Below, piece after piece: positions 61,057 through 62,041 of a DNA stretch of 64,000 nucleotides. The DNA comes from Escherichia coli (GTDB lineage: Bacteria > Pseudomonadota > Gammaproteobacteria > Enterobacterales > Enterobacteriaceae). Position 1 is the first letter of the stretch. Each line of letters begins with the position of its first letter. The position numbers and the translations under genes are program-made. The stretch is taken from assembly GCF_050920415.1 (NCBI RefSeq), contig NZ_CP169309.1; one strand, given 5' to 3'. The notes beneath the pieces were generated by a model. The model made no database searches. It worked only from the letters and a program-made list of their open reading frames with translations, and was not told the origin of the DNA.

Positions 61057-61083
61057 GCAAAGAAAAGCCGCCATCCGGCGGCT
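61057..61083 (-). terminator. rho-independent terminator downstream of repressor gene
   Basis: agccgcc-atcc-ggcggct hairpin followed on minus strand by TTTTCTTTG. Confidence 0.55.
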
Positions 61084-61088
61084 AATGT

Positions 61089-61736
61089 TTATGGCAGGTT
61101 TACGATCTTCGCATCAACCACCACACCTATGATTTTTGATTCTGGATTCATAGGGATTGGCGGATACAGAGGGTTGAGCGAACGTAAAAGCCTTTGACCT
61201 CCATCAATAATCAACTGTTTAAACGTCGGTATCTGCCCTTCCTCAAGCTGGGCTATAACCAGTTTGCCGTCAATAGCTGGCGCGTGCGGATCGACAAGTA
61301 TCATCGTCCCCGCTGGTATACTCAATCCTTGCGGCGCGTTCATTGATTCGCCTTTAGCTACCAGCCAATAACTATCATCTGAACAAATAACGCTAGTCGT
61401 AACGTGTGGTAATGTTGATCGCCTTGTATCATCCATATTGTTTACTGTGTCCTTCCAGTCAACAACCGGGTAACTGCCTAAATCACGCTGCGGCGCTCCC
61501 GGTAACGTGTTAGAAACAGAATCATCAATGACCATTCCATCATGTGTAACAGTGAATTGCCGACGACCAAGCGCCCGCATAATCCGCGCAATATCTTCAA
61601 GATTTGGCTCGCGGCGACCGTTAAGCCAGTGTGACAGGCCGCCTTTAGTTATCCCCATGAGATCCGCGAGTGAATCCTGGCTCATGCCTTGCGCTCGCAT
61701 GAGCTGCTTTGCTAAGTCATACCATTTTGTTTTCAT
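61089..61736 (-). CDS. CI-like prophage repressor (HTH-XRE plus S24 LexA-type peptidase domain)
   Basis: 215 aa; N-terminal HTH, C-terminal S24-like domain with GESM serine motif and a conserved Lys. Confidence 0.85.
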   Translation of the reverse strand: MKTKWYDLAKQLMRAQGMSQDSLADLMGITKGGLSHWLNGRREPNLEDIARIMRALGRRQFTVTHDGMVIDDSVSNTLPGAPQRDLGSYPVVDWKDTVNNMDDTRRSTLPHVTTSVICSDDSYWLVAKGESMNAPQGLSIPAGTMILVDPHAPAIDGKLVIAQLEEGQIPTFKQLIIDGGQRLLRSLNPLYPPIPMNPESKIIGVVVDAKIVNLP

Positions 61737-61795
61737 GTCGCTACCCTATAACCTCAAAAAGTTTGATACAAGTCACAAAATGTATTTTTCAAGTC

Positions 61796-61823
61796 TTGAC
61801 CTAAAAACGCCATTCTGTAAACT
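61796..61823 (+). promoter_or_regulatory. putative rightward early promoter (TTGACC-16-TGTAAACT)
   Basis: -35 TTGACC, 16-bp spacer, extended -10 TG-TAAACT; overlaps CATTCTGTAAAC motif copy. Confidence 0.45.
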
Positions 61824-62041
61824 TGCAGACAAGGTAGGGCCATAGTTGCAAAGACGCAAGAAAAAAGATAACGGAATAGCACAAAAAGGCGCATACCTTA
61901 TGCTCTTTAATAATCTGGTGTCGCTGCGAAGCGAAAAACAAATATCACGCAACGGCGGGATCTGTTAAGCGGTCAATCACTGCTACCTAATACTAATGGG
62001 ATACCCGCCCGCGCGTTCACTCTAACATAGGAGAAAACACA

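Follow-up and report, generated by a model that had tools for sequence, protein, structure and literature searches.

Predicted operators, promoters and nut-bearing leader in the Rep control region of an mEp021-like prophage of Escherichia coli

We have analysed a stretch of 64,000 nucleotides from Escherichia coli (NCBI RefSeq assembly GCF_050920415.1, contig NZ_CP169309.1; referred to as the window), with attention to the 305 bp at 61737-62041 that separate a gene for a CI-like repressor, rep, from a plus-strand gene. This interval is probably the OR control region of a prophage of the mEpimmI group (mEp021-like), controlled by the repressor Rep, with a nut site in the leader of the rightward transcript and with no Cro. 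The reading is based on the identities of the genes, on conservation, on the statistics of the motifs and on positions homologous to those in relatives. A sequence-only reading of the same DNA had described an immunity region with a 305-bp gap, a large dyad, a palindrome, a rightward promoter and a long leader. We confirmed this observation in part: the gap agrees with direct reading and with the open reading frame (ORF) listing, the coordinates are correct and the promoter call is sound, but the interpretation of the dyad and the palindrome is not.

Phages of the mEpimmI group reportedly equal lambdoid phages in frequency in human gut E. coli; their lysis-lysogeny switch has not yet been mapped. 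Here we provide predicted coordinates for PR, PRM, PL and five or six operators (Table 1). The 2025 study of this group (Negrete-Mendez et al., PMC11893012) mentions operators only hypothetically, defines no promoters and mentions no cro gene in these phages, and for this reason the maps given here are predictions. The same applies to the absence of Cro and CII and to the operator-like sites dispersed over the prophage, which, like the maps, were not found in the searchable literature; a literature search with the motif strings returned only unrelated eukaryotic papers.

Assignment of Rep and of the prophage

Rep matched the structure of lambda CI (3BDN) with an E value of 3e-19, and it is 97.7% identical to the tested repressor Rep021 of mEp021 and 95.8% identical to Rep of mEp515. 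Together with the helix-turn-helix (HTH_3) and Peptidase_S24 domains, these matches bear out the earlier designation of an immunity region. Rep belongs to the group I repressors (Rep021-like, more than 90% identical within the group), and 44 IMG/VR loci are 91-100% identical. In a megablast search, the segment 60590-62300 showed 91-93% nucleotide identity to mEp021, mEp515, mEp010 and other mEp phages, and it also matched 34 E. coli chromosomes. Over rep, the intergenic region and the nut sites, the identity to mEp021 and mEp515 is 91-95%. The gene order, namely ssb, erf, the gene for an N-like protein, rep and then divergent replication genes, is that of the mEp021/mEpimmI group (PMC11893012). 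The N-like protein is a homologue of Gp17, with 94.8% identity to gp17 of mEp021 and conservation of NARERRRIKRENERK in its arginine-rich motif. The region is an ordinary representative of a known phage group. Our comparison with mEp021 covered 58-64 kb of the window and scattered loci.

The role of Rep in immunity is taken from the literature: in tests with six mEpimmI phages, cloned Rep021 prevented infection by every one (PMC11893012).

Predicted operators and promoters of the control region

The operator of this repressor family was derived from lambda-like prophages (IMG/VR L051-L130), whose repressor is of the same type and resembles Rep in its N-terminal arm and recognition helix. Their repressors begin with MKxKW(Y/F)(D/E)(L/I)A(K/R) and share 53-100% identity with that of L049, whose own identity to Rep is 37%. 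In the 30 distinct OR regions of these related repressors, the frequency of TAC-N5-GTA is 1.97 per 128 bp (0.04 expected), and the family operator consensus is the 15-bp TATAC-N5-GTATA. When a position weight matrix (PWM) was derived from these OR sites alone, it recovered the OL pairs of the same phages, 1.9-3.1 kb away and spaced 23-25 bp, and almost nothing else in 18.6 kb; the matrix is therefore validated as the family operator. Measured from the repressor ATG, OR1, OR2 and OR3 of the lambda-like relatives start at -85, -51 and -24.

The predicted OR1 and OR2 of the window stand at corresponding positions. OR1 occupies -85 to -71 relative to the rep ATG and shares 4 nucleotides (nt) with the PR -10, as does OR1 of the lambda-like relatives, in which the PR -10 inside OR1 is TATACT. 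OR2 lies at -50 to -36, compared with -51 to -35 in those relatives, and the distance between OR1 and OR2 is 35 bp. On the other side of rep, OL1 overlaps the PL -10 by the same 4 nt. Compared with the core TAC-N5-GTA, OL1 has no mismatch, OR2, OL2 and OL3 have one each, and OR1 has two (GCC for TAC) in the homologous position. The operator-like motif is the only motif common to the PL and PR regions.

Conservation was assessed in a set of close relatives consisting of 44 IMG/VR loci, mEp021 and mEp515, which gave 29 distinct OR and 37 distinct OL sequences. In OR1 the core C-ATTnT-GTAAA is invariant, and in OL1 the arms are conserved while the 5-bp spacer varies. The 17-mer ATCCATTTTGTATACTT of OL2 is identical to 53225-41. 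OL3 has an operator-like form in only 1 of the 37 sequences and, in comparison with mEp021, only in this prophage; most of the close relatives carry AAAATATTTTATATG, and therefore two substitutions created the C...G core of OL3 here. A possible third operator within rep is invariant in 28 of 29 close relatives, and its status is uncertain because coding constraint also acts there.

The two arms of the proposed dyad, ACAAAATG at 61775-82 and CATTCTGT at 61811-18, are complementary at seven of eight positions. By position and by sequence, they are the centres of the predicted OR2 and OR1, respectively. The left arm is kept in 13 of the 29 OR sequences and reads ACAAAACG in the other 16, and the right arm reads CATT[C/T/A]TGT within the nearly invariant block CATT[C/T/A]TGTAAACTTGCAGACAAGGTA; the dyad is conserved in one half only.

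Among the sigma-70 matches in the interval, the proposed rightward promoter is the best conserved one. Its TTGACC (61796-801) and TAAACT (61818-23) match 9 of the 12 consensus positions; all 29 OR sequences have the -10, and all have TTGA[C/T][C/T] as the -35. The geometry equals that of TTGAAA-16-TATACT in one lambda-like relative (L055). The predicted PL agrees with the consensus at 10 of 12 positions, and its -10 and -35 are conserved in 37/37 and 36/37 OL sequences. For PRM, the -10 TAGGGT is invariant (29/29) and lies 6 nt before the rep ATG, and no Shine-Dalgarno sequence is evident. The predicted start coincides with the A of this ATG (61736), so that the rep mRNA is probably leaderless. 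In four of the five types of lambda-like relative shown (L051/L052/L054, L055-type, L081-type and L129), a -10-like hexamer (TATAAT, TATTAT or TAATAA) also stands 6 nt before the repressor ATG; L128 is the exception. The representative loci shown with an MKxKW-type repressor have a -10-like hexamer just 5' of the ATG and no evident Shine-Dalgarno sequence, which suggests that a leaderless cI mRNA is a trait of this repressor family.

In a lysogen, Rep dimers would occupy OR1 and OR2 and thereby block PR. Binding would probably be cooperative, through the lambda-CI-like C-terminal domain, and Rep at OR2 may stimulate the weak PRM (TTGTAT-17-TAGGGT). PL would be controlled by a mirror-image set, with OL1 across the PL -10, followed by OL2 and OL3. 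After derepression, the RNA from PR, which would not include cro, would run through the 212-nt leader with its boxA and boxB. At this nut site the N-like protein and host Nus factors would be expected to make RNA polymerase resistant to termination, and the polymerase would then reach the replication genes, the first of which encodes an 84-amino-acid (aa) O-like origin-binding domain. In this scheme we infer the transcription starts, the binding of Rep to the listed sites, its cooperativity and the activation of PRM.

Absence of cro and identity of the first rightward gene

The sequence-only reading had placed a plus-strand HTH gene beyond the interval. The position (62042-62296) stands; the gene is not a Cro-type regulator, and it encodes the N-terminal domain of an O-like initiator. 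The match of the 84-aa protein is to positions 1-90 of replication-initiator families, namely phrog_4617 and five further replication-initiator or O-like families. It is 31% identical to its counterpart in mEp021 (gp14) and 58% identical to that of mEp515, compared with 96-98% for Rep. A Cro that shares the operators of Rep should track immunity and the 84-aa protein does not; accordingly, we consider that it is not Cro. It belongs to a mosaic replication module, and in mEp021 both the gene in first rightward position and the replication protein are of another type. The initiator itself appears to be split, with the 84-aa O-like N-terminal ORF followed, after a gap of 3 nt, by a 366-aa Lin1244_N/O-like protein (62042-63400 in all). 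When tblastn was run with the Cro, cII and O proteins of the lambda-like relatives in search of a remnant of cro or cII, only rep (through its HTH) and the O-like gene were matched.

On the one hand, the region shares much with lambda. A CI-type repressor with HTH and S24 domains and a homologous C-terminal domain is divergent from the lytic promoter, PR and PRM are back to back, one operator lies over the PR -10 and a second is centred near -43 of PRM, and OL and OR flank the repressor gene. Also common to both are a leaderless cI mRNA (here probably) and an arginine-rich N-like protein with boxA/boxB nut sites. On the other hand, cro is not the first gene of the PR operon, as the 305 bp hold no conserved ORF, and cII is absent as well; the nut site is in the 5' leader directly past PR. 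The operator sequence is unrelated to that of lambda, the OR1-OR2 distance is 35 bp (24 bp in lambda), the boxA sites number three or four, and operator-like sites also occur outside OL and OR. With respect to a tripartite OR, two sites stand at the OR1 and OR2 positions, the PRM -10 has no operator-like sequence over it, and a candidate lies in rep codons 2-6. A further difference from lambda is that mEpimmI lysogens are reported not to be UV-inducible (PMC11893012). The switch would thus operate without the Cro/CII arm of the lambda paradigm, though related repressors elsewhere still adjoin cro: in the lambda-like relatives, cI is followed by about 105 bp and then by cro, cII and O, which is the canonical order.

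Dispersed operator-like sites

The motif of the two arms recurs far beyond the control region. The word common to both arms, CATTTTGTA, was counted 10 times in the window (1.03 expected), and CCATTTTGTAWAC with at most two mismatches 27 times (4.55 expected). In mEp021 the latter motif was found 20 times against 3.5 expected, and 9 of its 10 best sites are intergenic, though the genome is only 12.5% intergenic (P = 7e-8). The family PWM, which comes from other phages, gave 10 matches in the window (2.3 expected) and 12 in mEp021 (3.7 expected), 9 of the latter being intergenic (P = 1e-6). These intergenic statistics were taken from the annotated mEp021 record, as an ORF-based mask of the window is too crude owing to spurious small ORFs in intergenic regions. 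In the prophage of the window, at least nine intergenic loci carry the motif, and pairs at distances of 22-36 bp are frequent. Most of the distances fall at 22-25 and 30-36 bp, and the operator spacings of the lambda-like relatives fall in the same ranges (23-25 and 34 bp).

This distribution points to Rep-controlled promoter-operator modules spread over the prophage. We tentatively propose, at somewhat less than even chances, that the Rep of mEpimmI phages, without Cro or CII, keeps the prophage silent from about 20 operator-like sites, which occupy nine or more intergenic loci and often form helically phased pairs, and that immunity is thereby distributed over the genome. The loci concerned might be, with comparable reserve, PR, PL, the promoter before nutR2, a lysis-side promoter, several restart promoters in the tail cluster and sites adjacent to moron cassettes. 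By comparison, the lambda-like relatives of the same repressor family have a switch with two operator clusters: within 18.6 kb their operators are found only at OR (two or three sites) and OL (two sites), and their sites are more symmetric (TATAC-N5-GTATA). mEp021 differs in turn by having no operator-like sites upstream of the lysis-side gene (47775-47830 here). If the dispersed sites are real Rep operators, the mEpimmI group would provide a tractable case in E. coli of a CI-type repressor that represses across the whole genome, and a natural comparison for a bistable switch rebuilt on the loss of cro.

In mycobacteriophage L5, gp71 acts at stoperators, which are many short, largely asymmetric repressor sites located in intergenic regions throughout the genome, including the late region. 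Stoperators have a single orientation relative to transcription, and the monomeric repressor blocks elongation at them. The operator-like sites described here are likewise many, short, largely asymmetric and intergenic, and they too include the late region. However, the repressor is a dimer-type CI homologue (CI/S24) and not of the gp71 type, the sites have both orientations and stand mostly in pairs 22-36 bp apart (one pair at 64 bp and one at 72 bp), and many overlap -10 elements. The definition of an L5-type stoperator as an asymmetric site of single orientation for a monomeric repressor therefore does not describe them.

Several points weigh against the proposed reading of the control region. 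In OR1 and in most dispersed sites, CC replaces the AC of the family consensus, and the family PWM gives OR1 a poor score. The asymmetry of these sites (nCC-ATTTT-GTAWAC) is an unusual property where the repressor is a dimeric HTH protein. The OR2 core varies between AAAAT-GTA and AAAAC-GTG. Over the PRM -10, where the lambda-like relatives have OR3 (start -24), no operator-like sequence was found, and for the leader nut site no downstream terminator was found that it would have to overcome. In addition, part of the motif is a -10-like hexamer, TAWACT, so that promoter function alone could explain some of the conservation.

The last point leads to the rival explanation that fares best, which we nevertheless consider unlikely. 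According to it, CCATTTTGTAWAC(T) would not be the Rep operator and would instead mark a class of phage promoters (a -10 whose spacer is conserved) or be bound by a different regulator, for example a Cro-like or late-gene factor yet to be identified, with Rep binding a subset of the copies or other sites. The part of the recurrent motif outside the -10 hexamer is CCATTTTG, and the hexamers included are indeed -10-like (TATACT, TAAACT, TATAAA). Copies in sense orientation lie 17-150 nt upstream of gene starts, tail genes included. A cor-type exclusion gene, of a kind that lysogens would be expected to express, has one site about 90 nt before its likely start. The asymmetry of the sites and the low score of OR1 fit as well. 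However, several copies point away from genes or have no usable -35 (OL2, OL3, 47801, 53296, 60290), and a PWM from the OR sites of other phages alone picks out the dispersed sites. Moreover, spacings between neighbours resemble those of the relatives' cooperative operator pairs, and no other motif is common to the PL and PR regions. We therefore retain the reading of the motif as the Rep operator.

Other identities of the sites were also considered. A perfectly symmetric operator model for CCATTTTGTAWAC fails, since only the GTAWA half and one C fit the family dyad. The 434-type operator ACAA-N6-TTGT fits only one site. As a LexA box (CTG-N8-CAG) the spacing is wrong, and most relatives have TTGT. 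The sigma-54 consensus TGGCAC-N5-TTGC had no match, the consensus sequences of IHF and Fis did not fit, and an extended -10 was rejected with its TG one base out of register.

Some of the individual sites have further features. The inverted pair ACAAAATGGCA/TGCCATTTTGT is directly followed by a run of 12 G (47817-47828), and the mEp021 record has a terminator at the corresponding place. In the stretch 28132-28216, with its two facing sites, there is a perfect TATAAT on the minus strand (28200..28195), and convergent promoters are possible there. After the methyltransferase gene, a terminator-like hairpin of 16 pairs with a T run (53296..53261, minus strand) is present. The hairpin at 53261-53310 is built from two operator-like copies, GCGCC-ATTAT-GTGAC and ACGCC-ATTTT-GTAAA, and repressor binding and terminator folding could therefore overlap. 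The best match to the family matrix in the window, AAATACATTATGTATAC at 36238-36254 (score 21), overlaps the start codon (36245) of a minus-strand late gene encoding 351 aa. The site before the likely cor-type start is the operator-like palindrome TTATACAAAATGTATTT (19852-68), which is also upstream of a divergent tail fibre gene; the match of this superinfection exclusion gene (19798-20181, plus strand) is limited to ORF residues 53-124.

Leader and nut sites

A leader of about 210 nt before the first rightward gene had been noted as possibly holding additional regulation. With the start placed about 7 nt past the -10, near 61830, its length is about 212 nt, and it does contain a boxA/boxB nut site. 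This regulation is already known, as the site is a published one. The boxA begins 72 nt past the predicted PR start and is separated by 5 nt from the boxB, whose loop variants in the close relatives (GCGA, GUGA and GCAA) all fit GNRA; the leader thus has the boxA, short spacer and boxB with GNRA-like loop of a nut site past an early promoter. The boxA word GCTCWTTAAHAATC occurs four times in the window against 0.17 expected. Exact copies of boxA at 61902 (plus), at 60668 (minus, upstream of the N-like gene) and at 53197 (minus, after the methyltransferase gene) match nutL, nutR1 and nutR2 of mEp021. The legend of Figure 7 of PMC11893012 places these in the gp14-gp15 interval, ahead of gp17 and past the gene for the cytosine methyltransferase, and the three sites found here are in the same places. 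That antitermination operates at these sites in mEp021 is taken from the literature: Gp17 is described as an early antiterminator acting on nutL (between gp14 and gp15), nutR1 and nutR2 (PMC11893012), where readthrough dependent on N and Nus at the three sites is credited to Valencia-Toxqui et al. 2023 (Arch Virol 168:92).

We consider it very unlikely that the leader encodes something other than nut, such as a small Cro-like peptide, a small RNA or a riboswitch-like attenuator. Its length, the good conservation of 61934-62030, a predicted long-range GGCGGG/CCCGCC stem and a promoter-like match on the minus strand (61968..61941) could be taken in favour of such a function, but the close relatives are all more than 90% identical and conservation therefore says little. 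The small ORFs of the leader, a 40-aa ORF with a TTG start and a 22-aa ORF with an ATG start, were rejected for unconserved starts and indels: the ATG at 61900 is AAG in 21 of 29 close relatives, and most have a 1-bp indel inside the 40-aa ORF. No similarity to the Cro or cII proteins of the lambda-like relatives was detected. A structured RNA was likewise rejected, with a fold no more stable than that of shuffled sequences (z-score -0.9) and no intrinsic terminator; an Rfam scan of 58-64 kb at E values up to 1 gave three sub-threshold chance matches, none of them in the leader.

Inverted repeat and palindrome

The large dyad was not borne out as a single unit, and the gap between ACAAAATG and CATTCTGT is 28 bp rather than 30. 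In the 305 bp, 8-bp inverted repeats with at most one mismatch and a spacing of up to 60 bp number 3, compared with 5.4 in Markov simulations, and 4+1+4 palindromes number 2 against 1.06 expected. The dyad and the palindrome CAAGTCTTG (61790-98 by direct reading) were therefore rejected as significant features, being at chance level. That ACAAAATG-N28-CATTCTGT and CAAGTCTTG form one composite operator recognised as a unit is hardly credible: both arms are where they had been reported, flanking the PR -35, but neither the inverted repeat nor the palindrome exceeds chance, the palindrome is present in 5 of 29 close relatives, the same words pair at 25, 30, 34, 64 and 72 bp elsewhere with no fixed dyad geometry, and each arm lies inside its own 15-bp site, a positional homologue of OR1 or OR2 of the lambda-like relatives.

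Feature coordinates and the PL leader

Table 1. Coordinates of the predicted features in the window. Promoters, operators and operator-like sites are predictions.
Feature	Position	Strand	Sequence or arrangement	Evidence or remark
Rep, CI-like repressor, 215 aa	61089..61736	-		HTH_3 and Peptidase_S24 (Pfam), phrog_4
PR	61796..61823	+	TTGACC, 16-bp spacer, TAAACT	promoter scan; predicted start ~61830
Predicted PRM	61743..61771	-	TTGTAT (61771-66), 17-bp spacer, TAGGGT (61748-43)	sequence inference
Predicted PL	60937..60965	-	TTGACT, 17-bp spacer, TATATT	match to consensus; predicted start ~60930
OR1	61807..61821		ACGCC-ATTCT-GTAAA	-23 to -9 of PR; spans PR spacer and -10; contains right arm
OR2	61772..61786		GTCAC-AAAAT-GTATT	contains left arm; centred at -43 from PRM start
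Possible third operator	61719..61733		ATACC-ATTTT-GTTTT	motif matches; rep codons 2-6, +4 to +18 of predicted leaderless start
OL1	60939..60953		TATAC-GCCCC-GTAAA	-23 to -9 of PL; exact TAC-N5-GTA
OL2	60964..60978		AATCC-ATTTT-GTATA	25 bp from OL1; present in 33/37 close relatives
OL3	60986..61000		AAAAC-ATTTT-GTATG	22 bp from OL2; family PWM score 10.4
Untranslated PR leader, ~212 nt	61830..62041	+		no conserved ORF
Leader boxA	61902..61915	+	GCTCTTTAATAATC	nutL of mEp021 in PMC11893012; aligns with the other two nut sites
Leader boxB hairpin	61921..61934	+	UCGCU-GCGA-AGCGA	in both minimum-free-energy and centroid folds
84-aa winged-helix protein, N-terminal domain of O-like replication initiator	62042..62296	+		phrog_4617, E 2.7e-21
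Replication protein, 366 aa	62300..63400	+	Lin1244_N domain and O-like C-terminal region	domain and family matches
GC-rich hairpin just past rep stop	61066..61083		terminator-like on both strands	terminator scan; TERM_1 in mEp021 record
N-like antiterminator, 96 aa, Gp17 homologue	60299..60589	-	arginine-rich motif	phrog_271, E 1.2e-11
nut site upstream of N-like gene	60645..60681	-	boxA GCTCATTAACAATC and GC-rich hairpin	nutR1 of mEp021
Third nut locus	53178..53310	-	boxA 53210..53197, boxB hairpin 53191..53178, TTGTTC-16-TATACT	nutR2 of mEp021
Operator-like triplet	53235/53269/53299		34 and 30 bp centre to centre	before nutR2
Operator-like pair	47779/47804		25 bp	perfect 11-bp inverted pair, given in full in the next row
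The 47779/47804 pair in full, ACAAAATGGCA/TGCCATTTTGT	47775..47813		12-bp spacer	across TTGTTT-17-TATAAA, upstream of minus-strand gene starting 47733
Operator-like pair	31432/31457		25 bp	before tape-measure gene
Operator-like pair	56827/56851		24 bp	
Operator-like pair	26551/26587		36 bp	
Operator-like pair	28140/28212		72 bp	
The 28140/28212 pair in full, two facing operator-like sites	28132..28216		72 bp apart	between minor tail gene (start 28119, -) and plus-strand small ORFs
Single operator-like sites	60285-301, 63764-80, 19852-68, 36238-54			

Two observations concern the leader of the predicted PL transcript. A fourth boxA-like word, GCACTTTAAAAATC, with one mismatch, is located at 60881-60894 on the minus strand, about 40 nt past the predicted PL start; the literature counts three nut sites. 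Within the same leader, 60682-60694 and 60867-60879 show a 13-nt complementarity (92%) that brackets about 170 nt, and about nine relatives carry a different sequence in part of the stretch 60682-60879.

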